Source: Candidatus Saccharimonadota bacterium
GTDB lineage: Bacteria > Patescibacteriota > Microgenomatia > UBA1406 > GWC2-37-13
Direction of reading: 5' to 3'
Length of the DNA stretch: 32,000 nucleotides
NCBI GenBank assembly: GCA_016432445.1
Contig: CP066689.1
Coordinates: forward strand, 120,001-152,000
This document shows positions 5,095-31,766 of the stretch, piece after piece. Positions within the stretch are counted from its first letter, which is position 1. Every line of letters begins with the position of its first letter. The notes beneath the pieces were generated by a model. It was not told the origin of the DNA, searched no databases, and saw only the letters and a list, made by a program, of their open reading frames with translations. Position numbers and translations under genes: made by a program.

Positions 5095-7662
5095 TGAATT
5101 ATCTGTCTGATTATTGTTAGTCTTTTCTTCTTCCTTTTTAGGTTCTGGTTCTTTTAGTTTGTCTTTTTCTTCGTCTATCTTTAACTCCTCTGCCATGGTC
5201 ATGGTTTTTGAGGCTTCTTCTTTTTTGGCTAGAGGTACGTCAACCAATACTTCCTCAGCTTTTGATTGAAGTTTTTCAGTAATCTCTTTTTCTTTATCAA
5301 TCTGCCCTTGAACAGTTTTAGCGGCTTCAAGCTTAGCTTTAAGGTAAACCAAAAGTTCATCTCCTTTTAAGTTGTTAATCATAAATATGGGCAGAATATA
5401 GCCAATCTCATCTAATCCTTGATTTTTTAACTCAGGATTATCTGAGATGAGTTTATTTAAAGTATTGGTGATAAAGACAATGTCCTGATCAATCCATTGC
5501 TCGCGATTAGTTAGATTTTCAGTTACTGGTACCTCACCTTTCTCGTATTGCTGAATCCACATTTTCTTAACTTCTTCATAGTCTTCAATGGAGATGGTTG
5601 AAGGAATAGCTACAGTTTGTTCAATATTCATTTCAGGTTCAGCGATAAGAGGAGTTTGGGCCTGAACAACTTTTTCAACCTGATCTTCAGTGATTTGTTC
5701 TTTTTGAGCCACCTGTTTAACCAGTTCTTTATTCTGGCTTATAGCTTCTGCCATTTGTTTGACAACTTTCACGACTTGTTCTTTTTGCAAACCAGTTTCT
5801 TGGGTTATATTTTGAATAACCTGAGTTGATGGTTTTTGCGAGTTCTGTTTATATGATGCAATTACTGTTTGAACTTGAGAAGTTGAGACGTGAGCATTTT
5901 GAGCGATTGAGTTAACAACATTGGTTTGTGAAGTTATGGTGTCGGCCAAAGAAGCTGTGATTGAGGATACTTTTTCTGTTGGAAGTTTTACTTTGTAAGA
6001 CACAACTTGAGTTACCGGCGTCAGCTTAAGGGTTGTCTGCAGAATCTTTTCTCTGTTTTGCATGCGTTCAACTGTTGAGGCGGATGTGGTTGATAAGATC
6101 TGTTTGGCCAGAGTATCTTCTTTTATGGCGCGATTGAAAAGCTCAGTTCTGATATTCATATATTTCTGCCTTTCAACAGGTGTTTGAGCTTTAGTTGGAT
6201 TGGAAAGGTAATCCATATTTTGTCTTATTGTTTGCTGAGTTTGTTTGTTGGTTTCGATGCGGGCAATATCAGTTAATTTGGTAGCTGATAAATTAAGCGA
6301 TTTAGTAATTTCTTCTGTTTTTGTTTTTTTAATTTCCTCAAGTGTCTCAAGCTTAACTTTAACAGGTATGTTCATTTCCTCTGTCATTTTAAGTTTTGCA
6401 CCAAAAGATGATGGAGTGGATGGTGAAGTGGGAGAAGGCGGAGTCGGTCCGTTTCTTTTTTGATCATATAATGACAAAAGAATATTCTTCATAGCGTTTA
6501 TGCCATCACAGCAGTAGTCTCTAAAAATTCTTAGTAAAAGCCAGGGTAAAAAAATCGCTACCCAAAGCATAAGGAGAGTAATTACATATTCAACAAAAGT
6601 ATCAATATAGTTGCCATTATTTAAAACAGATAGACTTTGAGCAGGCCCGCCATACAAAATGCTTATAGCAGTGGGATAAATATATCCATCAGGATTACCT
6701 GCCCGCTGAAAATCAAAAATAAAAGGAATGCCTTCTCTCCAGATTCGGGCCAGCCCTCCAAGAAATAAAGCAAATAAAGGACCATAAAAAAGCCATTGGA
6801 AAAAAACGCCTATCCAAACCCAGCCGATATTTCTTATGAAAACAAAAGGAAGAAGAATAGCTAAAAAAGGTGAGATAAAAAGTAAAAACCAGAGAATAAT
6901 CTTTCTTAATAAGATCATTACTCCCATGAGGTAATAGGTAATATTGGTAAGCTTCATCATAAATAACTCTGTTTGGGCTGCTTCCTGTACTCCAAAGTTT
7001 AAGTCGCGGCACCCTGGTGTCTGAAGATAATTTGATTCCTGGCTAGTTGAGGAAGCAAAATAAATATTAAAAAGATCTTTTCCTCCTAAATTTTCCATGA
7101 AAAATTTCATCATAATTTCTGATAACTGAATAAGAAAAAGAACAATAGCAGCAGAGAAAGTGATAAAAAACAAAGCTCCGGCGATTTTCAAAACTGACGG
7201 CCAAATTTTTATTTTGAAATCAAAACTGGTTCTTTGACTGATTATAAAACCAATGCCCAAAATAGCGGCCAGTAAAACAACAAAAAAATAAGAAATGTTT
7301 CGAGTAGTATTCCAAACAGACTTTATAGTCGGATGATCATCAATAGCGTTTTTATTTAATACCCAAGATATAAATTGTCTAGCTCTTTCATTAGATTGCC
7401 CTTGAATTTTAACTTCAGGATCCTCAGCCCAAAAGTGAGACTGGGCTGGATTTTGTTTAAATTCATCAAAAGTAGCAACACAAGTTTCACCTCGAGATTG
7501 ATAAATACTTTTTATACTGGCTGGACAATCAACTCCGCCTTGGCAAGGTGTAGGATCAAGCTCTACTTTTATAGATTCTTTTGCCCAAACAGCAGTAGAG
7601 ATATTTATAACGGTTATAATTGTTATAAACGTTATAAATATTATAAAAATTATTTTTCTCAT
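5089..7662 (-). CDS. 857-aa secreted/polytopic membrane protein with a Pro/Thr/Ser linker and long Q/E/K/V-rich C-terminal region (tentatively VirB6/TrbL-like)
   Basis: The start is placed at MRKIIFIIFITFITIITV (ATG 7660-7662), which forms an ATGA overlap with the stop of the upstream cohesin-like gene. After the signal peptide comes a Cys-containing ectodomain, about 8 or more TM helices, the linker PTPPSPTSPSTPSS, and a helical repeat-like tail (SQVQTVI, EQVVKVV, DQVEKVV). The VirB6 resemblance is architectural only. Confidence 0.65.
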   Translation of the reverse strand: MRKIIFIIFITFITIITVINISTAVWAKESIKVELDPTPCQGGVDCPASIKSIYQSRGETCVATFDEFKQNPAQSHFWAEDPEVKIQGQSNERARQFISWVLNKNAIDDHPTIKSVWNTTRNISYFFVVLLAAILGIGFIISQRTSFDFKIKIWPSVLKIAGALFFITFSAAIVLFLIQLSEIMMKFFMENLGGKDLFNIYFASSTSQESNYLQTPGCRDLNFGVQEAAQTELFMMKLTNITYYLMGVMILLRKIILWFLLFISPFLAILLPFVFIRNIGWVWIGVFFQWLFYGPLFALFLGGLARIWREGIPFIFDFQRAGNPDGYIYPTAISILYGGPAQSLSVLNNGNYIDTFVEYVITLLMLWVAIFLPWLLLRIFRDYCCDGINAMKNILLSLYDQKRNGPTPPSPTSPSTPSSFGAKLKMTEEMNIPVKVKLETLEEIKKTKTEEITKSLNLSATKLTDIARIETNKQTQQTIRQNMDYLSNPTKAQTPVERQKYMNIRTELFNRAIKEDTLAKQILSTTSASTVERMQNREKILQTTLKLTPVTQVVSYKVKLPTEKVSSITASLADTITSQTNVVNSIAQNAHVSTSQVQTVIASYKQNSQKPSTQVIQNITQETGLQKEQVVKVVKQMAEAISQNKELVKQVAQKEQITEDQVEKVVQAQTPLIAEPEMNIEQTVAIPSTISIEDYEEVKKMWIQQYEKGEVPVTENLTNREQWIDQDIVFITNTLNKLISDNPELKNQGLDEIGYILPIFMINNLKGDELLVYLKAKLEAAKTVQGQIDKEKEITEKLQSKAEEVLVDVPLAKKEEASKTMTMAEELKIDEEKDKLKEPEPKKEEEKTNNNQTDNSS
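7604..7640 (-). repeat. 9-bp-periodic (G/T)TTATAAC array inside signal-peptide coding sequence (copy A)
   Basis: Units start at 7604, 7613, 7622 and 7631 on the plus strand. GTTATAAC is its own reverse complement. The array encodes the ITFITIITV core. Confidence 0.8.
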
Positions 7663-8363: not shown

Positions 8364-10217
8364 ATGAAAAAAATAATTACTATAACCGTTATAAGTTTTA
8401 TAACCATTATAACGGTTATGCAAACAAATGCAGTTTTTGCTCAACAGCCAGCTCAATCACAACGCTGGGTATGTCTTGATGCCAAATGGTGTAATGATCA
8501 AAACAGCGGTTGTTCAAAGAGAGATGCTCATAGAGCTAAGCTTAGCGTAAAACAAGATGTTAAGCCTTTGGCCAACTCCGATTCTTACGTTATTGAATGT
8601 CTGGCAACGCAGGGAGGCCAGATTTGCACTACAGGAAACAGAGATACCGATAGAAGAGTTTATGGTGTTGATACTACAGGAAAAACTAATGTAGAGAAGT
8701 TATCATCAGTGGTTCAGTATAGATTTGAAGGAATATTCCAGTCTGATGGCACTGCGTTGGCTCCTAATCCTTCCAGGAGCAACAATGCTGGGATTATCGG
8801 TCCATTTGAATGGCAAAGTTATACTCCATCTACCATATCGAGGAAATTCATTGCCCTAAATTATTTCACCCAAAATAACGTAACAGGTAGTGAGGGGGGG
8901 CAGCAGCAAGGGACTTTTAGTTTCGAAAATGCCTCTAGAACTTGTGTTGCTATAAACTGGGATCCATATGGTCGGGTCTTTGATAGTCAGACGCTTGAGC
9001 CTATACCTGATAGTATCGTTACTTTACTCCAGAAAAGGCAAGATGACTCTTTTAGCAGAGTAATTGCGGATGATATTTTAGGCGGCAATATTGAGAATCC
9101 TCAAACGACAAAAGAAAATGGAGCTTTTAGTTATGTTGTACCAGATAATATTTATAGAATAACTGTTTCAAAGTCTGAGTATATTTTTCCTAATGTTTTA
9201 ACAAAATTAAATCCAGCTTATTCTAGGATTTATTCAGATATTTATCGTGGAGAAGAAATTATTCAGCAAGGAAGGATACAGCATCGAGATATTCCTTTAG
9301 ATCATGTAGGCAGTGGAAAAACTTACCCAATGGTTATAAATTATTTTTACGAAACTGACAAGGTAGGAAAAGGAATAATTGAAGGGCAATCATCTCATCC
9401 TTTTGTTTTAATTAAGGCATATAGCGTTAAAGTCAACTCTTCTGTCGGTCAAGCAGAACCATCAAGAACACGCTATCGATTGTTAAAAACAATAAATGCC
9501 GATAAAAACGGAAGTTTTAAAATAGAAATTAATCAGTCAAATTTTGAATCAAATGAGGTCTTTGGCGAGATAGAAGTTCAGAAAACTGATTTATTAACTC
9601 AAAGTTCTGTTTCTCAAAATTTCTTCGAAAAAATATTATCACCAGTCCAAGCCGCAGAAACAACGACTTTGAAATTTGAGCCGATCCCTACTTATATTGA
9701 AGGGTTTACCTATGTTTCTGGTCAGGTTATGCCTAGTACGAAAGTTGGTGTTTACTTAACTTTCTCAGAGAAACCTTATTATGAAACACAATCAGATGAG
9801 AAAGGTTACTTTAAAATAAGTTCTGAAAATCTGCCAACCATGCCTTATAAATTAAGATACGGCTTAGCTGGTTTTCAAACTACTGTTTCAACTTCAAAAT
9901 TTATTGCTCAAAATGCTAAATATATTGGTTCTAATAACATTAAGGTTAATACTTTTCAAGATATTAATGGTAAAACTCAGATTACTTCGTCACCATCTCC
10001 AAAAAAAAGTTTATTTCCGACATCAACGGTAAATAAAAATTATTCTAACGATCAGAAAAACAAGGATTCTCAACAGTACAACGCTAATCCTTCATCTGTG
10101 CCACAATCAGGCATGCTTTTGATATTGCTTATTATTTTAGTACTTTTAGGCGGAGCAGCTTTCCTTCTTGGTTTTTATCTTTACAATAAAAACAGAATGC
10201 CTCCTCAAATGATGTAA
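8364..10217 (+). CDS. 617-aa secreted surface protein with Cys-rich N-domain, carboxypeptidase-regulatory-like beta-sandwich and C-terminal sorting-like signal
   Basis: Signal peptide MKKIITITVISFITIITVMQTNAVFAQQ. GRVFDSQTLEPIPDSIVTLLQ is CarboxypepD_reg-like. The C-terminus has VPQSG, a TM helix and a basic tail (YNKNRMPP). Confidence 0.65.
   Translation: MKKIITITVISFITIITVMQTNAVFAQQPAQSQRWVCLDAKWCNDQNSGCSKRDAHRAKLSVKQDVKPLANSDSYVIECLATQGGQICTTGNRDTDRRVYGVDTTGKTNVEKLSSVVQYRFEGIFQSDGTALAPNPSRSNNAGIIGPFEWQSYTPSTISRKFIALNYFTQNNVTGSEGGQQQGTFSFENASRTCVAINWDPYGRVFDSQTLEPIPDSIVTLLQKRQDDSFSRVIADDILGGNIENPQTTKENGAFSYVVPDNIYRITVSKSEYIFPNVLTKLNPAYSRIYSDIYRGEEIIQQGRIQHRDIPLDHVGSGKTYPMVINYFYETDKVGKGIIEGQSSHPFVLIKAYSVKVNSSVGQAEPSRTRYRLLKTINADKNGSFKIEINQSNFESNEVFGEIEVQKTDLLTQSSVSQNFFEKILSPVQAAETTTLKFEPIPTYIEGFTYVSGQVMPSTKVGVYLTFSEKPYYETQSDEKGYFKISSENLPTMPYKLRYGLAGFQTTVSTSKFIAQNAKYIGSNNIKVNTFQDINGKTQITSSPSPKKSLFPTSTVNKNYSNDQKNKDSQQYNANPSSVPQSGMLLILLIILVLLGGAAFLLGFYLYNKNRMPPQMM
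8379..8420 (+). repeat. 9-bp-periodic (G/T)TTATAAC array (copy B)
   Basis: Units start at 8379, 8388, 8397, 8406 and 8415 (ACTATAAC, GTTATAAG, TTTATAAC, ATTATAAC, GGTTATG). Confidence 0.8.
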
Positions 10218-14763: not shown

Positions 14764-15162
14764 ATGAAAAAAAATAATGGCAATGACATCATTGAAATGA
14801 TGACTCATTTTCAAAAGAAAATCCTTGAACAAAAACCTTCACTAGACAAAATGTTTGAAGAGATCAGAATGATGAAGTTTAAGATCCGGCCTTTAAACGG
14901 GGATATTTCTTTACTTGATCTCAAAAACAATCATTTTATTGAGATATTATGGAGTTTAGGTAAGCTTGATGAGTTTTTTCAGTTCCAGTATAAAAAAGTA
15001 TCAGTACACAAGCGATCCTTATTCATTAAATTATTTGATGAAATGCATGATAAATTTCAGGAAGATTTAAATAATCTTAATCTTAAGCCTGAAAAATTAC
15101 CAAGCACAACTTCAGCCTTTGAGATGGAAATTTTTAAAGAAAGAACTCAGCAAAGCAACTAA
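14764..15162 (+). CDS. Hypothetical protein (132 aa)
   Basis: An intact ORF in an otherwise unoccupied interval. I recognise no motif. Confidence 0.4.
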   Translation: MKKNNGNDIIEMMTHFQKKILEQKPSLDKMFEEIRMMKFKIRPLNGDISLLDLKNNHFIEILWSLGKLDEFFQFQYKKVSVHKRSLFIKLFDEMHDKFQEDLNNLNLKPEKLPSTTSAFEMEIFKERTQQSN

Positions 15163-15170
15163 AACTTCTT

Positions 15171-15752
15171 ATGAAAAAATTCCCCATTGTACTTGATCTG
15201 GAGACAAAATATACCTTTAGAGAGTTTGATGATCCGCAAAAACTTGAAGTCTCTGTCGCGGCCATCTATGATTACCAGGATCATCAGGGCAAAATATATT
15301 TTGAAAAAGACCTAAACAAACTTTTTCCTCTTCTGGAGAGCGCGTCTTATATTATTGGTTATAATGTCCGGAGTTTTGATCTGGCAGTTTTACAGCATTA
15401 TTATCCGGGGAAAGTCGATCATTTTTCCTGTTTTGATATTTTGGATGATATTAAAGAAAAGCTGGGTAGGCGTTTGTCATTAAATGATGTAATATCAGCC
15501 ACTTTAGGTAAGAAAAAATCCGGTCATGGACTGATGGCGATTGATTATTATAAGGAGGGGAAGTTTGAGAAATTAAAAAAATATTGTTTGGATGATGTCA
15601 TTTTAACTAAAGAACTTTTTGATTATGGAGTTAAAACCGGAGAAATCTTTTATTTTACTTCTAAAGGAAAAGGAACAATAAAAGTCAGCTGGAAAAAATA
15701 TATTGAAGAGGATGGAGAAAATGGTAATATGCCCCTAACCCTGCCTTTTTAG
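15171..15752 (+). CDS. RNase H-fold DEDD-type 3'-5' exonuclease-like protein
   Basis: Motifs VLDLETK (Exo I), GYNVRSFDLAVL (Exo II) and YCLDDVILTKELF (Exo III-like). Confidence 0.6.
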   Translation: MKKFPIVLDLETKYTFREFDDPQKLEVSVAAIYDYQDHQGKIYFEKDLNKLFPLLESASYIIGYNVRSFDLAVLQHYYPGKVDHFSCFDILDDIKEKLGRRLSLNDVISATLGKKKSGHGLMAIDYYKEGKFEKLKKYCLDDVILTKELFDYGVKTGEIFYFTSKGKGTIKVSWKKYIEEDGENGNMPLTLPF

Positions 15753-15831
15753 ACGATAGGATTCTCCATGAAAAAGAATAAATTTTTTGATAAAATATAG
15801 ACTGTCAGTTTAAGCACTTTTAAATTTTATT

Positions 15832-15904
15832 TCCCCTGTAGCTCAACGGTACCGCGCCCGCCATCGCAAGCATGAGCTTGCTCAGGCGTTGCGGGCGGGG
15901 AGCA
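15832..15904 (+). other. tRNA-sized chimera: exact 5' 20 nt and 3' 8 nt of tRNA-Asn flanking a GC-rich extended hairpin
   Basis: 15832-15851 is identical to 16162-16181 (TCCCCTGTAGCTCAACGGTA). 15897-15904 (GGGGAGCA) is identical to 16228-16235. The core 15852-15900 folds as CCGCGCCCGC/GCGGGCGGGG (9 of 10 bp) enclosing GCAAGC-ATGA-GCTTGC. No anticodon or T arm can be drawn. Confidence 0.6.
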
Positions 15905-15922
15905 AAAAGCTATAATAAAACT

Positions 15923-16159
15923 ATGTTTTACACATATGTTTTAAAAAGCTATAAAGATAATAAATTATATATAGGTTTTAGTGACAATTTAAAGCAAAGA
16001 ATAGAAGACCATAATAATGGTAAAGTTTCCTCAACTAAAGATAGACGGCCATTAAAACTTATATATTATGAAGCTTGTTTATCTAAATTAAAGGCTCTTA
16101 AGAGAGAAAAATATTTCAAGACAGGATTTGGTAGACAGTATCTTAAAAATAGAATTTAA
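15923..16159 (+). CDS. Small GIY-YIG nuclease family protein (UPF0213/URI-like)
   Basis: FYTYVLKSYKDNKLYIGFSDNLKQRIEDHNNG...YFKTGFGRQYLK contains the GIY...YIG motifs, a conserved Arg, and the Glu in YYE. The start is placed at the ATG at 15923, 6 nt after a TATAAT (15911-15916). The ORF-track N-terminal extension runs through the GC hairpin. Confidence 0.85.
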   Translation: MFYTYVLKSYKDNKLYIGFSDNLKQRIEDHNNGKVSSTKDRRPLKLIYYEACLSKLKALKREKYFKTGFGRQYLKNRI

Positions 16160-16161
16160 CA

Positions 16162-16233
16162 TCCCCTGTAGCTCAACGGTAGAGCAGGTCGCTGTTAACG
16201 ACAAGGTTCGTGGTTCGAATCCACGCGGGGGAG
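16162..16233 (+). tRNA. tRNA-Asn (anticodon GTT)
   Basis: Cloverleaf: acceptor TCCCCTG/CGGGGGA, D-arm GCTC-AACGGTA-GAGC, anticodon arm GGTCG-CTGTTAA-CGACA (27:43 G-A mismatch), variable region AGGTT, and T-arm CGTGG-TTCGAAT-CCACG. The discriminator is G and no CCA is encoded. Confidence 0.9.
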
Positions 16234-17742
16234 CATTGTTGAATTTTTAGGTTGATTTGCGATTATAAAATACGGTTTCTTCCAGTCCCATCGGGCTTTT
16301 CCGTCCTTCCACTCTAAGTTCTCACAAAAGATATCAACCATTTCCCTTTTGTTTTCTGGTAAGGCCAGTCTTAGTCTTTTGGTGACGTGCTTTATGTTAT
16401 CTAGGAACTGGTACATAAGCTCGTCTAGTTCGCTAACGATATTCTCACATTTAATAATCGTATTTCGATAAGACGCTTCCTTTCGACGACTGTCTTCCAT
16501 AAGCCGGTTATAATCAGCCTTCATAAGCTCACCCCCTGAAAAGCGTCGACCCATATCGATTTGAAGATTTTGTTCGGTTGAAATCTTTTCGCCAAACTCC
16601 CGAACTTGTTTTTTAATATCTAGTTTTTGTGGTTGGTTTATCTCCACTACATAATCACGCGCTTCTTTCCAAGTATCCTGGTCTATTTCAATTCGTTCAA
16701 AAGCGGTCATTAAACTATCTTCAAGTTGTTTTTCAGGGATATAGGTGATTCGGGCAATATCTTTACAAGGGGACCGTCGTTTTCCACACCGATAATAGGT
16801 AATACCTTTTTTGTGCGTTCCTGAAAGCATTCCACCACACAGACCGCACTTAAACATACCTGAATATGCGTAATCTAGGTGGGTTGTTTTTGGGTGTTCG
16901 TGATCGGTGATAATTTCTTGTACGCGATAAAATAATGGGGTGTCAATTAAAGGTACATATTCGCCCGCAATCCTTTCTCCGTCGCTTTCGAAGATTCCTG
17001 TGTACTGAACGTCACTTAATCTGTTTCGCCAAGTGTTCTTATGAAATCCACCTGATACTGACTTACCAGACAGTAATCCGATATTTTTAGCATATTCGGC
17101 GATTTGTTCGAATGTGTAGTTACCGGTAGCAAACTGTTCGAAAACCATTTTAACTAACGGTCCTCGTACAGGATCGACAATCCACTTCTTACGACCCACG
17201 GGTCCTTCGGTAATATAACCTAGAATTGCCGGTCTTGCCGGGTGCTTCATTATCTTTGCTTTTGATTTCATACCCTCTATGGTCCTGTATCCGGTATCGT
17301 CGCTTGATTTTTTGGACATAGCAAATTCGATAGCTACCATTAGCTGATCCCCGGACGAATCAGTAAAGACTTTTGTGGGCGTATAAATTCGTTTGATTAT
17401 TCCGTTTTGTAAATACCACAGAATCATTCCACCGTCGGCAAAATTACGCGCAAGACGACTAATTTCGGTACAAACAATCCCGTCGATTTCGCCTTTATGG
17501 TCTTTAAGGTAATCGAGCATATTGGCAAAACTATCGCGTGCGAAAGCTTCATAACCGGTTTTATCGTCTTCAAAAATAGGACCAACTAATTCAAGTTTGT
17601 ATCTTGCTATAGCGTCTTTAACGAAGGTCTTTTGATATTCTAATGAATTTAATTGTTTACTCGCTTCACCTTTAAGATTGTCTTCCGAAGACTTCCGGAT
17701 ATAGGCGACCACGCGATTATATTTTGGTGGGTTATCTTCCAT
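16195..17742 (-). CDS. Large serine recombinase (resolvase catalytic domain, recombinase domain, zinc ribbon, coiled coil)
   Basis: VVAYIRKSSED carries the catalytic Ser and ICTEISRLARN is also present. The zinc ribbon is CGLCGGMLSG...YYRCGKRRSPC, followed by a long helical C-terminus. The start is set at MEDNPPKYN (17742). The last 13 codons (MLPRVDSNHEPCR) are antisense to the tRNA-Asn 3' half. Confidence 0.9.
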   Translation of the reverse strand: MEDNPPKYNRVVAYIRKSSEDNLKGEASKQLNSLEYQKTFVKDAIARYKLELVGPIFEDDKTGYEAFARDSFANMLDYLKDHKGEIDGIVCTEISRLARNFADGGMILWYLQNGIIKRIYTPTKVFTDSSGDQLMVAIEFAMSKKSSDDTGYRTIEGMKSKAKIMKHPARPAILGYITEGPVGRKKWIVDPVRGPLVKMVFEQFATGNYTFEQIAEYAKNIGLLSGKSVSGGFHKNTWRNRLSDVQYTGIFESDGERIAGEYVPLIDTPLFYRVQEIITDHEHPKTTHLDYAYSGMFKCGLCGGMLSGTHKKGITYYRCGKRRSPCKDIARITYIPEKQLEDSLMTAFERIEIDQDTWKEARDYVVEINQPQKLDIKKQVREFGEKISTEQNLQIDMGRRFSGGELMKADYNRLMEDSRRKEASYRNTIIKCENIVSELDELMYQFLDNIKHVTKRLRLALPENKREMVDIFCENLEWKDGKARWDWKKPYFIIANQPKNSTMLPRVDSNHEPCR

Positions 17743-18031
17743 ATTTATCTTTGGTGACGGCTTTATTAAGCTTGTCGAACGTTTCACTAAACGATTGTGG
17801 ACCCTTGCCTTTAGTAATTACCTTTCTAAATTCTTCGAGATCTGTCGTAATAATTCTTTGTTTGTTTTTTATTGTTATTTGGGCTTGTGGTTCGGTGTAT
17901 ATTCTTTGGACGACTTTAACAAATCGCTTAAAGCTACTTAATAGGGGTGGAATATCCTTATCGCCCAATTTAGGATCGCGTTTTAACAAGTGCGATATAA
18001 AATTCTTTTGTGCTTTACTTGTATTTTCCAT
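17732..18031 (-). CDS. Hypothetical basic protein (99 aa)
   Basis: It is co-directional and tightly spaced with its neighbours, with a 5-nt gap upstream and an 11-nt overlap with the recombinase start. It is preferred over the overlapping plus-strand ORF. Confidence 0.45.
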   Translation of the reverse strand: MENTSKAQKNFISHLLKRDPKLGDKDIPPLLSSFKRFVKVVQRIYTEPQAQITIKNKQRIITTDLEEFRKVITKGKGPQSFSETFDKLNKAVTKDKYGR

Positions 18032-22703: not shown

Positions 22704-23339
22704 ATGAGGAAAGAAGAACAACAAAAACAAATTTCTAATTCAGCACTTAAATGGAGTGCGCTCTCGGCGCTTATCGCCTCTTTGTGTTGTATTGGGCCAT
22801 TAGTATTGGTTCTCTTTGGCATAGGCGGAGCCTCAACAGCATTAGCCATTGGCTACCGTAAGCCGTACTTTCTGCTTTTTGGCTTAGCAGTGCTTATTAT
22901 TGGATTAGTTTTCATCTATCGCAAAAGTTGTAGTACTACAAAATTAAGTAGGAAACAGCAAGTATTCATCTTCGGAGGTTCGTTTCTGGTTGCGGCATTA
23001 TTATATTACTTTTTGACCTATGTGGGAGTGCCGGCAGTTACCCCGCTGGTATATCAGTCCAGCAGCGCTTCAAACATATTAGCCTCCTTTTCAAATAACA
23101 GACCCAATAAAGCAACACTCAAAATAGAGGGAATGTCGTGTGCCTCATGTGCAGTAAGTGCACAATATAGCTTAAAAAGCCTTCCCGGTGTTGCTGACGC
23201 TTATATTGGCCTTACGAAAAACCTTGATGGTGAAGGTTGGATAGTCTATGAACCTGATCAGGTGACTAAAGAACAAATTATTAAGGCGATTGAACCATAT
23301 AAAGCAACGTTTACATCTGATAGCGTGTACACTCAATAA
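22704..23339 (+). CDS. Mercury transporter-like membrane protein (vicinal Cys in TM1) fused to a C-terminal heavy-metal-associated (MerP-like) domain
   Basis: LIASLCCIGPLVLVLFGIGG is a MerT/MerF-type CC motif, and three to four TM helices follow. The HMA domain is LKIEGMSCASCAVSAQYSLKSLPGV. Confidence 0.7.
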   Translation: MRKEEQQKQISNSALKWSALSALIASLCCIGPLVLVLFGIGGASTALAIGYRKPYFLLFGLAVLIIGLVFIYRKSCSTTKLSRKQQVFIFGGSFLVAALLYYFLTYVGVPAVTPLVYQSSSASNILASFSNNRPNKATLKIEGMSCASCAVSAQYSLKSLPGVADAYIGLTKNLDGEGWIVYEPDQVTKEQIIKAIEPYKATFTSDSVYTQ

Positions 23340-30114: not shown

Positions 30115-30444
30115 ATGGAAAACATGGCTCAAGTTCCCTCATCTACTTCAGCTCAAGTAGTAACCGCTAATTCTTCACCAAGATCCCATAAAATATTTAT
30201 TTTTCTTGGAATCTTTTTATTTATATTACTGCTTATTATTGGTGGCGGTGTAGTTTATATAATGACTTTAAAAAAGAATAATTCTTCTCCATCTATAATA
30301 AATACATCTTCATTATCTCCAACTGCAGTCCCTACACCAACAACATTACTTAAAGAAGAATACAAAAATCCATTTGAGGAAAAAAACCAGTATCAGAATC
30401 CTTTTGAAACATCAGAAAATCCATTTGATGCTTTAAGCCAATGA
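30115..30444 (+). CDS. Single-pass membrane protein with three C-terminal NPF motifs
   Basis: TM helix IFIFLGIFLFILLLIIGGGVVYI, an S/T/P linker, then KNPFEE, QNPFET and ENPFDA. The stop overlaps the next ATG as ATGA. Confidence 0.55.
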   Translation: MENMAQVPSSTSAQVVTANSSPRSHKIFIFLGIFLFILLLIIGGGVVYIMTLKKNNSSPSIINTSSLSPTAVPTPTTLLKEEYKNPFEEKNQYQNPFETSENPFDALSQ

Positions 30445-31766
30445 AAAAAATAATCAATATAATTTTTATTATCGTTATAACAGTTATAACTGTTATACAA
30501 GTCACTGAAGTAAAAGCTCAAGAAGCATCTGAAGCCAATGCAAAAAAATTTGGTATTTCCTTTCCTGTAGCCGAGCTTGGTAACTGTGCTTCAGTTTCTG
30601 AGTGCAAAACTTACTGTGATGATAGCGCCAATAGAACACAATGTATAGCTTTTGCCAAGAAAAAAGGTTTTTATAAAGAAGAAAAGTTAGATGATAAAAA
30701 AAGAGAAATGATTCAAACTGCCAAAGATAGTCTTGGCTGTAGTGATGAAGAGTCATGTAAGGTAGTTTGCAGCAAGGAGGAAAATTATGAAAAATGCAGT
30801 CAGTTTGCGAAAAAAAATGGTTTTGAAGGTCCAAAAAGACAAAATCCTGGTGATAAAAAAATAATTCAGAAAGCCAAGGAGATATTAGGCTGCACCTCAG
30901 AAGAGTCATGTAAATCAATTTGTGAACAGGATAATAATAAAGACAAATGTTCAGAGTTTGCTAAACAAACTGGTTTGGGGGGTGGAATACGGCGTGTTGG
31001 TCCGGGAGGTTGTAATTCTGAGGAAAGCTGTCGTAGCTACTGTGAAAAAAATGAAGATGAATGTAGAAAATTTGGAGGTGGCGGTGGTCCTCCTCCTGGC
31101 TCAACCGGTAAAATGCAAGGTCCGGGGGGATGCAATAGCGAGGAATCATGCCGGTCTTATTGTGAAAAAAATCCTGAAGAATGTAAAAAGTTTGGAGGCG
31201 GTTCTCCAGATAGACAAGGACAGCCGCCGCCTGAGGCGCAAAGACGAGGCCCAGGTGGATGCGATAGTGAAGAATCGTGTAAATCTTACTGTGAAAAAAA
31301 TCCTCAAGAGTGTGGAGGGAAAAGAGACGAAGGAGAACGGCGAGGTTTTGATCAAAGTGGTTTTAACCAAAGTGAAAGCAAAGAAGATTTCTGCCGCAAG
31401 AATCCTGACAAATGCCGTTTGCCTGAAAATCTTCAACAGCAAAATATTAGTCAGGAGGAATTCTGTAAAAATAATCCAGATAAATGCGTTCAAAATAAAA
31501 AAGAACAGCGGGAGCAGTTTATAAGACCTCCCGAAGATAGTCAGAGAATTGAAAAACCACCGGAGAGTTTTCAACGACCTCAGGGAGAAAATAGAAGTTT
31601 TCAGCCGCCTCAGGGAGAATTAAGACGTGACCAGCAGCCTGAGAATTTTCAAAGACCCCCGTCAGGAGAAGTGAGACAAGAACAAAAACCGCCTGAAGTG
31701 AAAGGAGCTTCTTCATCTTTTTCCTTGCTTAACAAAATCATTCAATTTTTCCTTCTTAAAAATTAA
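30441..31766 (+). CDS. Secreted cysteine-repeat protein (six 4-Cys modules plus two 2-Cys half-modules) with a C-terminal P/Q/E/R-rich repeat region
   Basis: Signal peptide MKKIINIIFIIVITVITVIQVTEVKAQE. The module G-C-x3-ESC-x3-C-x6-8-C-x2-F recurs six times, for example GGCNSEESCRSYCEKNEDECRKFGGG. These are followed by FCRKNPDKC and FCKNNPDKC, and then PPE.FQRPQGE-type repeats. Confidence 0.7.
   Translation: MKKIINIIFIIVITVITVIQVTEVKAQEASEANAKKFGISFPVAELGNCASVSECKTYCDDSANRTQCIAFAKKKGFYKEEKLDDKKREMIQTAKDSLGCSDEESCKVVCSKEENYEKCSQFAKKNGFEGPKRQNPGDKKIIQKAKEILGCTSEESCKSICEQDNNKDKCSEFAKQTGLGGGIRRVGPGGCNSEESCRSYCEKNEDECRKFGGGGGPPPGSTGKMQGPGGCNSEESCRSYCEKNPEECKKFGGGSPDRQGQPPPEAQRRGPGGCDSEESCKSYCEKNPQECGGKRDEGERRGFDQSGFNQSESKEDFCRKNPDKCRLPENLQQQNISQEEFCKNNPDKCVQNKKEQREQFIRPPEDSQRIEKPPESFQRPQGENRSFQPPQGELRRDQQPENFQRPPSGEVRQEQKPPEVKGASSSFSLLNKIIQFFLLKN
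30465..30498 (+). repeat. 9-bp-periodic GTTATAAC array (copy C)
   Basis: GTTATAAC at 30474-30481 and 30483-30490, GTTATAC at 30492-30498, and a degenerate unit at 30465. Confidence 0.8.

Follow-up and report, generated by a model that had tools for sequence, protein, structure and literature searches.

A GIY-YIG nuclease gene and a GC-rich palindrome at a tRNA-Asn gene of Candidatus Roizmanbacteria: a candidate homing-type cassette with relatives across the Candidate Phyla Radiation

A 32,000-nucleotide stretch of contig CP066689.1 (positions 120,001 to 152,000 of the forward strand), referred to here as the window, was analysed around its tRNA-Asn gene, which is closely preceded by a gene for a small GIY-YIG nuclease and, further upstream, by a GC-rich hairpin and a partial copy of the same tRNA. 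The host of this DNA is Candidatus Roizmanbacteria, a member of the Candidate Phyla Radiation (CPR). The locus extends from 15768 to 16234 on the plus strand. It begins with the native tRNA-Asn leader (15768-15831), which was recognised by a consensus scan and by its homology to the tRNA-Asn leader of a related locus, L196, and which contains a promoter-like site at 15768-15796. Directly behind the leader lies the displaced 5' fragment of the resident tRNA-Asn, nucleotides (nt) 1-20 (15832-15851), an exact repeat of the 20 nt at 16162-16181. It is followed by a GC-rich imperfect palindrome of 48 bp (15852-15899), a hairpin mini-element that was assigned to neither strand and was delimited by sequence and fold, with ends ambiguous by 1-3 nt, and by the five bases GAGCA (15900-15904), which correspond to tRNA-Asn nt 21-25 and with which the displaced fragment resumes. 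An A/T-rich spacer of 18 nt (15905-15922) with TATAAT at 15911-15916 leads to the stand-alone GIY-YIG nuclease gene (15923-16159), whose product of 78 amino acids (aa) was assigned to the Slx1/UPF0213 type by Pfam, by its homologues and by its predicted structure. The stop codon is separated from tRNA position +1 by the 2-nt gap CA (16160-16161), a distance of 1-9 nt in most related units. The intact tRNA-Asn(GTT) at 16162-16234 was called by ARAGORN and scored 63.8 bits with Rfam, and its first 20 nt (16162-16181) constitute the 5' segment brought in as a replacement or by duplication. The 20-nt repeat, the GC-rich hairpin, the TATAAT sequence, the 78-aa GIY-YIG gene and the intact tRNA-Asn reported in a preliminary description of this locus are all present.

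The 20-mer TCCCCTGTAGCTCAACGGTA occurs in exact copies at 15832-15851 and 16162-16181 and in no others, none being expected in shuffled sequences, and the spacing between the two copies is 330 bp. In the intact tRNA-Asn, nt 20 (A) is followed by GAGCA, and the identical five bases come after the hairpin; therefore, the left copy represents tRNA nt 1-25 broken after nt 20. A split alignment of the upstream region to the tRNA placed the last tRNA nucleotide before the hairpin at x = 20 and the last one after it at y = 25, and such a continuation of the tRNA beyond the hairpin was found in at least 31 loci. The inserted material consists, in order, of the 48-bp palindrome, 5 nt of broken tRNA, the spacer, the nuclease gene and the second copy of tRNA nt 1-20. 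This second copy, together with the resident nt 21-76, restores a working tRNA-Asn two bases past the nuclease stop codon. The 78-aa open reading frame (ORF) is the only gene in the insert; a longer ORF of 95 aa, which starts at 15872 within the hairpin, is an artefact.

The preliminary description had regarded 15832-15904 as a tRNA-sized chimera of 73 nt with a copy of the 8 nt at the tRNA 3' end and with its middle replaced by the hairpin. The letters of the octamer GGGGAGCA at 15897-15904 do match the last 8 nt of tRNA-Asn, but the octamer is composed of the hairpin-terminal GGG and of GAGCA and is better read as the hairpin end followed by D-stem nt 21-25. Hairpins of related loci terminate in ...GCGGGCGGG in nearly all cases, regardless of the tRNA, and the next bases are those of the D-arm of that particular tRNA, as in L021, where GCACCGGTA is followed by the hairpin and then by GCTCAGTCGG. 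The hairpin does not replace the middle of a tRNA; it is a discrete, independently occurring palindrome between nt 20 and 21. Since the equivalent unit spans 45-96 nt in 31 other loci, the length of 73 nt is a coincidence. No tRNA was called within 15832-15904 by ARAGORN, and no Rfam family was assigned to it in a permissive scan of 15000-17000, in which only the real tRNA-Asn scored. The minimum-free-energy fold of 15832-15904 is a single long hairpin with an unexceptional z of -1.72.

No call of a promoter-like pair of elements was obtained at the TATAAT of 15911-15916. The promoter-like site lies instead at 15768-15796, 5' of the left fragment, and this tRNA promoter site presumably drives the nuclease gene. 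No displaced 3' part of tRNA-Asn was found in the window by a pattern search allowing up to 3 mismatches, and local alignment gave results no better than those with shuffled sequences. Further copies of the hairpin were also searched for in the window, and none was convincing.

Homologues of the exonuclease-like gene located just upstream were collected, and their contigs were searched for an orthologous site lacking the insertion, a comparison to which the preliminary description had also looked. Such a site was identified in L196/L197, which are derived from related Roizmanbacteria and in which the gene order DivIC-YqeY-hypothetical-exonuclease is kept as in the window. The leader in L196/L197 is homologous to that in the window (gataaaatata...gcactttaattttat), and the tRNA-Asn lies directly behind it, with neither a hairpin nor a GIY-YIG gene. 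Because the L196/L197 leader runs straight into tRNA-Asn, the left fragment in the window marks the native position of the tRNA, and the 330 bp constitute an insertion. Occupied and empty alleles at an orthologous site, as expected for homing, were thus found in one case. The anticodon loop of the L196 tRNA-Asn (2164-2376) is interrupted by a group I intron (Rfam RF00028, 105 bits), owing to which this tRNA was missed by ARAGORN, and the DNA downstream of the tRNA differs from that in the window. Other relatives of the flanking gene (L191-L195 and L198) had no tRNA at that position and were uninformative. No strain-level empty site could be found via the identical flanking exonuclease protein, every same-population contig being occupied. 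In three of the four representatives of the same-population assemblies, the contig breaks within or at the end of the hairpin, which also indicates that several copies of the hairpin are present in the sample.

The product of the 78-aa ORF is a GIY-YIG domain protein (PF01541, E 1.9e-16, cutoff 22.6 bits), with residues 1-71 forming the catalytic domain. Y5, Y16, G18, R26, H30, E50, R61 and E62 are invariant across 49 sequences, and the motifs, the conserved Arg, His and Glu residues and the predicted three-stranded sheet with helices place the protein in the GIY-YIG superfamily. No NCBIfam family scored above its cutoff for the nuclease. The AlphaFold model (pLDDT 95.4) contains no extra domain. 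The best Foldseek matches in the Protein Data Bank (PDB) were the UPF0213 protein BH0048 and the Slx1 nuclease domain, with query-normalised TM-scores of 0.67-0.72 at 27-28% identity, and the query-normalised TM-score to the I-TevI catalytic domain was 0.47. Sequence matches in the PDB, obtained with phmmer, were 1zg2 (E 4e-4), 1ywl and SLX1 7wme. The protein was placed in the Slx1/UPF0213 (YhbQ-like) branch by its minimal stand-alone domain, by the lack of a C-terminal Asn and by being nearer to UPF0213 and Slx1 than to I-TevI or UvrC. More than 2000 homologues were found, many of them 65-79% identical across CPR and many on very short contigs. The ratio of nonsynonymous to synonymous substitution rates (dN/dS) was 0.05-0.19 in related ORF pairs, which indicates that the nuclease is under strong purifying selection. 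In the viral contig collection only one relative was detected, which argues that the nuclease family is not phage-borne. Database versions of the nuclease are often 85-135 aa long (P0007, P0020, P0058, P0091, P0094, P0095, P0098 and others); these are probably the product of gene callers that start at an ATG within or upstream of the hairpin, as with the 95-aa ORF in the window.

The arrangement at the window locus recurs widely. In 80 genome loci, a same-strand tRNA begins at most 20 nt past the stop codon for 48 of 91 GIY-YIG hits, and these tRNAs represent 21 isoacceptor types. The architecture consists of nt 1 to x of the locus's own tRNA, the hairpin, nt x+1 to y, a spacer, the GIY-YIG gene, 1 to 9 nt and the intact tRNA, and it was clean in 31 loci, with hairpins of 36-56 nt, spacers of 1-29 nt and ORF-to-tRNA gaps of 1-9 nt. 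The insertion point x was 9 in 13 of these 31 loci and 7-22 in the others, and y was 14-30. On its left side the duplication begins at tRNA position +1, the exact leftward extension being 0-2 nt in 25 of the 31 loci. The spacers are not conserved and are often too short for a promoter or a ribosome-binding site. A TATAAT-box promoter was considered as a general expression signal and was rejected, as it would not fit into the spacers of 1-7 nt found in many loci.

When genome and metagenome loci were taken together, 88 units of ORF plus tRNA were obtained, all of them with a GC palindrome just upstream of the ORF. The split-fragment architecture was recovered in 55 of the 88 units by an independent automatic procedure; two automatic hairpin finders were too strict for variants with mismatched arms, and their misses were checked by eye. 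Tandem arrays were also present, with two 100% identical units in L053 and units of 81% identity in L010. Other GIY-YIG subfamilies, 33-53% identical, occur in the same tRNA loci or arrays (L004 1939-2211, L007 1965-2237, L035 1128-1379 and L058 1813-2067), some of them downstream of the tRNA and each with its own distinct short hairpins. The distinct hairpins of these subfamilies (L035, L058) suggest matched pairs of nuclease and hairpin. None of the sampled homologues from outside CPR (L069, L070, L076, L079 and L081) had an adjacent tRNA. The design thus spans at least 21 tRNA types and hundreds of genomes with one gene family and one hairpin family.

The hairpin behaves as a discrete element. 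Its predicted folding energy in the window is -24.9 kcal/mol as RNA (-26.0 in the opposite orientation) and -16.3 as DNA. Exact matches to its 24-nt arm were found in 109 metagenome stretches, and a 47-nt master sequence was identical in 46 of 97 copies. The window hairpin is identical at 47 of 48 positions to that of L002, which is located at a tRNA-Met, with the L002 and window proteins 73% identical, and the hairpins of L046 and L053 are identical at 36 of 36 positions although the synonymous divergence (dS) of their ORFs is 1.28; from these comparisons the hairpin is more conserved than the nuclease gene. Approximately one copy in two precedes a GIY-YIG start by 10-100 nt, 24 in the same orientation and 21 in the opposite one, and the occurrence of both orientations favours a DNA-level element over a strand-specific RNA. 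In addition, 22 solo hairpins adjoin a tRNA in the same split-fragment layout without a nuclease gene, and for 29 copies no tRNA and no GIY-YIG gene is in the vicinity. The sites of these 29 include a terminator stem, the interior of other hairpins, and tRNA T-loops and anticodon loops; a further site lies just past the stop codon of a PilB/GspE-like gene. In L177 (7032-8618; also in L083 and L087), the hairpin forms 16 in-frame codons (PPATPEQAQDLRWRTG) in an otherwise intact 528-aa ORF for a SufS-like cysteine desulfurase. Hairpins nested within hairpins were also seen, and a comparison of L116 with L013 showed that extra hairpins accrue in old fragments. Insertion points in tRNAs cluster at D-stem edges, at TA/GCTC (between nt 9 and 10) and GGTA/GAGC (approximately between nt 21 and 22), the slash marking the insertion, and with the hairpin in canonical orientation the last base of the left flank is A in 57 of 97 copies. 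Short, imperfect, dispersed, found in both orientations and inserted in genes and in other copies of itself, the hairpin has the properties of palindromic mini-elements such as Rickettsia palindromic elements (RPE), repetitive extragenic palindromic (REP) sequences and miniature inverted-repeat transposable elements (MITE). A role as a terminator was rejected, as the hairpin has no T-run and no terminator was called.

Several interrupted genes were observed in the course of the hairpin survey. In L167 (approximately 45-165, in tRNA orientation), a full-length tRNA-His with a perfectly matched acceptor stem contains a 47-nt hairpin in its D-loop, and ARAGORN reported a false tRNA starting inside the hairpin; this tRNA-His is either a dead copy or one from whose RNA the hairpin is removed. 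Full-length tRNAs interrupted by hairpins were also found in L157, L114 and L023, and L171 contains a 175-nt Rfam tRNA match. On the minus strand of L103, around 338, a full Rossmann-fold gene (MKILITGGAGFIGSH...) is directly preceded by a diverged fragment of its 5' part (MKRVLVTGGAGFIGS...) that is split by a hairpin. No nuclease gene is present, and the layout is the tRNA-style architecture at a protein-coding gene.

Evidence on the spread of the cassettes was obtained from pairs of related ORFs and from individual loci. ORF pairs with at least 78% nucleotide identity were always located at the same tRNA type, which indicates that lineages are tied to one tRNA and do not hop freely; promiscuous hopping among tRNA types was rejected, as no pair at this level of identity was found at different types. 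Judged from these sequences, the window cassette is one member of a large CPR/Patescibacteria family in which each lineage keeps to a single tRNA isoacceptor. In L127 (minus strand), GGGCGTT... of the upstream fragment is complementary to ...AACGCCC of a remnant on the downstream side and not to the intact tRNA-Val (GCGCGCT/AGCGCGC) between them, which has an inverted repeat of 13 bp (CCCCGTTAGATTT / AAATCTAACGGGG) on its two sides. The locus is a tRNA within a tRNA, the host being a broken second tRNA-Val with the insertion in its anticodon-loop region and a hairpin in its D-loop. L023 and L128 are analogous, the upstream acceptor strand matching a 3' remnant downstream and not the intact tRNA. 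In these three loci the block lies inside a broken cognate tRNA that stems from another lineage. In L152, a gene end encoding EVWRVTEE and a stop codon is followed by the hairpin and then by a second copy of the same peptide sequence that has synonymous differences only, which indicates that the second copy evolved as a working gene end elsewhere. The three tRNA loci and L152 lend indirect support to a co-transfer of flanking target sequence from the donor.

These observations are best accommodated if 15852-16181 is a 330-bp selfish homing-type insertion in the D-arm region of tRNA-Asn that carries a replacement part of the tRNA, a reading to which we assign a probability of about 0.6. It draws on the architecture and its recurrence, on the single empty site, on the purifying selection on the nuclease, on the conservation and independent occurrence of the hairpin and on the loci with broken cognate tRNAs. 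In the preliminary description, a small mobile cassette with a GIY-YIG gene (about 15852-16181) had been proposed, with the tRNA D-loop as its target and a replacement 5' segment as its cargo; this proposal is essentially supported by the empty orthologous locus and by the occurrence at no fewer than 21 tRNA types. We infer the mechanism of movement as follows. The cassette would spread in the manner of homing-endonuclease genes that stand alone: a cognate tRNA gene still free of the cassette would be broken, and an occupied copy would be the template for the repair. The left homology arm would be provided by the short 5' fragment of the tRNA and the right one by the tRNA body, and the nuclease gene, the hairpin and the replacement part would be copied jointly; a crossover within the tRNA would leave no 3' remnant. 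The nuclease, which has no DNA-binding domain and a Slx1-like fold, probably reads DNA structure, such as a hairpin or cruciform or D-arm-like stem-loops, and not an extended sequence; mobilising the hairpin in trans is probably another of its activities. The nuclease gene would be transcribed from the tRNA promoter, and the RNase P cut at tRNA position +1 would make the mRNA 3' end, as is suggested by the tight spacing between the stop codon and position +1 and by spacers too short for a promoter. As the resident 5' end is displaced, loss of the cassette would risk loss of the tRNA, and retention would be favoured.

Several points weigh against this homing-type reading. Near-identical cassettes were not found at different tRNA types, and the distribution could therefore be largely old and vertical. 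A second tRNA 3' copy within 260 nt downstream was found in only 14 of 83 units. As the 20-nt copies in the window are identical and no 3' remnant is present, this locus alone does not separate a carried segment from a target-site duplication. The rebuilt tRNA retains any sequence-defined target across the insertion point, which poses a problem of self-cleavage for simple homing. The single empty site comes from a relative whose flanking protein is 73% identical. The separate DNA-binding domain typical of GIY-YIG homing enzymes was not found in the protein, which consists of the catalytic domain alone, and Slx1 needs its partner Slx4. Both the cleavage activity and the target of the 78-aa protein are putative, and spacing is the one line of evidence that points to co-transcription and RNase P processing.

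Some of the same observations could be explained if the hairpin were the sole mobile entity, an element similar to MITE, RPE or REP that prefers stem-loop DNA such as tRNA D-arms, with target duplications arising from its own insertion or from repair and with the GIY-YIG gene as a host or hitch-hiking gene in tRNA leaders. The 22 solo hairpins with split-fragment architecture at tRNAs, the 29 hairpins away from both tRNA and GIY-YIG genes, including those inserted in frame in coding sequences, the conservation of the hairpin in excess of that of the gene, and the gathering of extra hairpins in old fragments (L116 vs L013) are all consistent with this explanation. However, a hairpin is located directly upstream in 88 of 88 units of GIY-YIG gene plus tRNA, other GIY-YIG subfamilies have hairpins of their own (L035, L058), the nuclease gene itself is missing from the orthologous L196/L197 site and is present in tandem arrays (100% identity in L053, 81% in L010), and several solo spacers resemble deletion remnants of the ORF, such as ATG...AAGAATTT in L095; we therefore consider an exclusively hairpin-driven origin unlikely. 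Quite unlikely is true transposition with a long, variable target-site duplication, in which staggered cuts at tRNA position +1 and somewhere from the D-loop to the anticodon stem would duplicate nt 1 to y, the hairpin entering the upstream copy during or after this event. The left edge of the duplication at tRNA position +1 (extension of 0-2 nt in 25 of 31 loci), the identical copies in the window and the variation of y from 14 to 30 would all fit transposition, but the upstream fragments of L127, L130 and L039 have a different acceptor strand beside intact hairpins and are not local duplicates, and the variation of y is also explained by deletions in related pairs (L116 vs L013). Moreover, fidelity to one tRNA type is unexpected for a free transposon, and there is no transposase, nor are there fixed ends or inverted terminal repeats flanking the ORF.

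The preliminary description had also raised the possibilities of a tRNA-derived structured RNA and of a decayed tRNA duplicate. A 5' stem-loop could stabilise an mRNA, and the 73-nt unit might head the nuclease transcript as a functional RNA resembling a tRNA and act as a processing signal, mimic or stabiliser; it would form the 5' untranslated region if the tRNA promoter were used, and its hairpin is very stable as RNA in either direction (-24.9 and -26.0 kcal/mol). Such a function is nevertheless very improbable, given that the unit receives no tRNA or Rfam call and folds as a whole with a z of only -1.72, that its length and the position of the hairpin within it vary widely, that the hairpin occurs in both orientations, and that the same hairpin is found within ORFs, in terminators and downstream of genes. 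The other possibility is that tRNA-Asn was simply duplicated in tandem, that one copy decayed and that the small gene separating the two has nothing to do with them. A partial tRNA copy does lie upstream of an intact one, and the left fragment is indeed the displaced 5' end of the resident tRNA, but in other respects this explanation fails: one gene family and one hairpin family make up the identical design in hundreds of genomes, at no fewer than 21 tRNA types, and it is the left copy, not the right one, that sits behind the native leader. A decayed duplicate is hardly credible.

A more far-reaching reading was also considered, in which the Slx1-type mini-nuclease is the mobilising enzyme of the hairpin, that is, a structure-guided, nuclease-only "transposase" that acts on stem-loop or cruciform DNA and pastes or copies the hairpin there, with the tRNA cassettes as home bases that persist through a tRNA-based addiction, since they have taken the place of the 5' end of the resident tRNA. 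Its targets may include the D-, anticodon- and T-arms of tRNAs, terminators and other hairpins. Structure-specific cleavage of branched or hairpin DNA by the nuclease would be compatible with its predicted fold and its obligatory hairpin partner. We regard this reading as doubtful, leaving a modest chance of a new kind of structure-guided mobile element.

If the mobilising-enzyme reading were true, it would define a new class of prokaryotic mobile element and would give the Slx1/UPF0213 lineage, which is supposed to be housekeeping, a selfish role for the first time, and if the nuclease were guided by DNA structure or by the hairpin, it might be of interest as a very small programmable or structure-specific cutter. 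A widespread selfish element would be added to CPR/Patescibacteria, whose tiny genomes are thought to be streamlined and whose tRNA genes are apparently heavily parasitised; the tRNA-Asn gene itself is interrupted by a group I intron in the relative, and in the window a recombinase island adjoins its other side. Stand-alone Slx1/UPF0213 nucleases gain a testable context in a defined hairpin partner and tRNA-gene targets. Annotation problems are also explained, namely over-extended N-termini of GIY-YIG proteins, false tRNA calls that start in hairpins and assembly breaks at these sites.

Other features of the window were noted as well. A serine recombinase ORF of 530 aa (16195-17787, minus strand) with Resolvase, Recombinase and Zn-ribbon domains overlaps the 3' half of tRNA-Asn with approximately its last 13 codons. 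Beyond it, to about 21419, lie small ORFs of unknown function, a CAP-domain protein and a 695-aa protein with helix-turn-helix (HTH; MerR), DUF7380 and DUF4209 domains. The recombinase region on the 3' side of tRNA-Asn is probably a separate integrated island. Near it, an ORF with MerT-like and heavy-metal-associated (HMA) domains is located at 22704-23339. At 30991-31313, within a 441-aa ORF (30441-31766), a repeat rich in Cys codons (GGTCCGGG...TGTGAAAAAAAT) is present in three tandem copies approximately 120-129 nt apart; the repeated unit is probably a small domain, rich in disulfides, of a secreted protein. The N-termini of three ORFs are encoded by similar stretches (ATGAAAAAAATAAT...ATAACCGTTATAA...), at 8364-8456, at 30441-30533 and, inverted, at 7607-7662; the products are probably secreted paralogues whose signal or transmembrane leaders are related.

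No description of a cassette of GIY-YIG gene and hairpin at CPR tRNA genes was found in the searchable full-text literature, and the cassette is apparently an undescribed combination of a free-standing homing-type nuclease cassette with a palindromic mini-element. With regard to classical insertion sequences (IS) and transposons, no match to a transposase family was obtained for the insert, its duplication is of a variable 14-30 nt, and it has a single one-sided palindrome. Integrase-type islands likewise target tRNA genes, keep the gene intact with a duplicated tRNA segment and displace a partial copy. They differ in using tyrosine or serine integrases, usually with a 3'-end duplication, and in being kilobases long, whereas the CPR cassette is 330 bp long, has no integrase and shows a 5'-end duplication; the serine recombinase in the window lies outside the 330-bp insert, on the other side of the tRNA.

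Known palindromic mini-elements include the Rickettsia palindromic elements, REP/REPIN sequences with their RAYT transposases, and the GC clusters of yeast mitochondria. The CPR hairpin shares with them the form of short imperfect palindromes in many copies and both orientations, nesting, and in-frame insertion in coding and RNA genes, and the in-frame hairpin of L177 resembles the Rickettsia palindromic elements. It differs in that its partner is a GIY-YIG nuclease and not an HUH/Y1 transposase, no HUH protein being found among the window ORFs examined, and in its strong link to tRNA 5' parts, where it always occurs with a rebuilt target. A survey of REP sequences has been published (PMC3733652).

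The nuclease resembles proteins of the UPF0213/YhbQ type (PMC1564403; PDB 1zg2, 1ywl) in fold, in its minimal domain, in conserved residues and in the lack of a C-terminal Asn. The prokaryotic Slx1-like branch has been described as without auxiliary domains, vertically inherited and probably repair-related, selfish enzymes having been assigned to the other (UvrC+) lineage (PMC1564403). Unlike this vertical family, the CPR subfamily behaves as part of a selfish cassette. SegB of phage T4, a free-standing GIY-YIG homing endonuclease, has a conserved tRNA-arm motif in its recognition site and drives the tRNA genes next to it (PMC2330249). The likeness lies in the position of a GIY-YIG gene among tRNA genes, in the tRNA-arm motif of the SegB site and in the inheritance of SegB jointly with neighbouring tRNA genes. 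However, SegB belongs to the I-TevI/UvrC lineage and is full-size, DNA-binding part included, whereas the CPR protein is a 78-aa catalytic domain of the Slx1/UPF0213 lineage; SegB has neither a palindromic element nor a broken tRNA fragment, and it is phage-borne, whereas the CPR family is chromosomal.

Free-standing GIY-YIG genes accompanied by a partial duplicate of the gene next to them are also known from fungal mitochondria, and the Allomyces atp6 element is one such case. As in the CPR cassettes, the nuclease gene is located at the end of an essential gene, a replacement segment keeps that gene working and the displaced remnant stays in place; homeologous copies indicate transfer between lineages (compare L152 and L127), and the genomes are AT-rich with mobile GC-rich palindromes. 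In the case of atp9, it is the N-terminus that was partially duplicated (PMC7487136). The CPR cassettes differ from the fungal ones in that their target is the 5' part of a tRNA in free-living or episymbiotic bacteria, in that their nuclease belongs to another GIY-YIG lineage, and in that the hairpin is obligatory in every unit.

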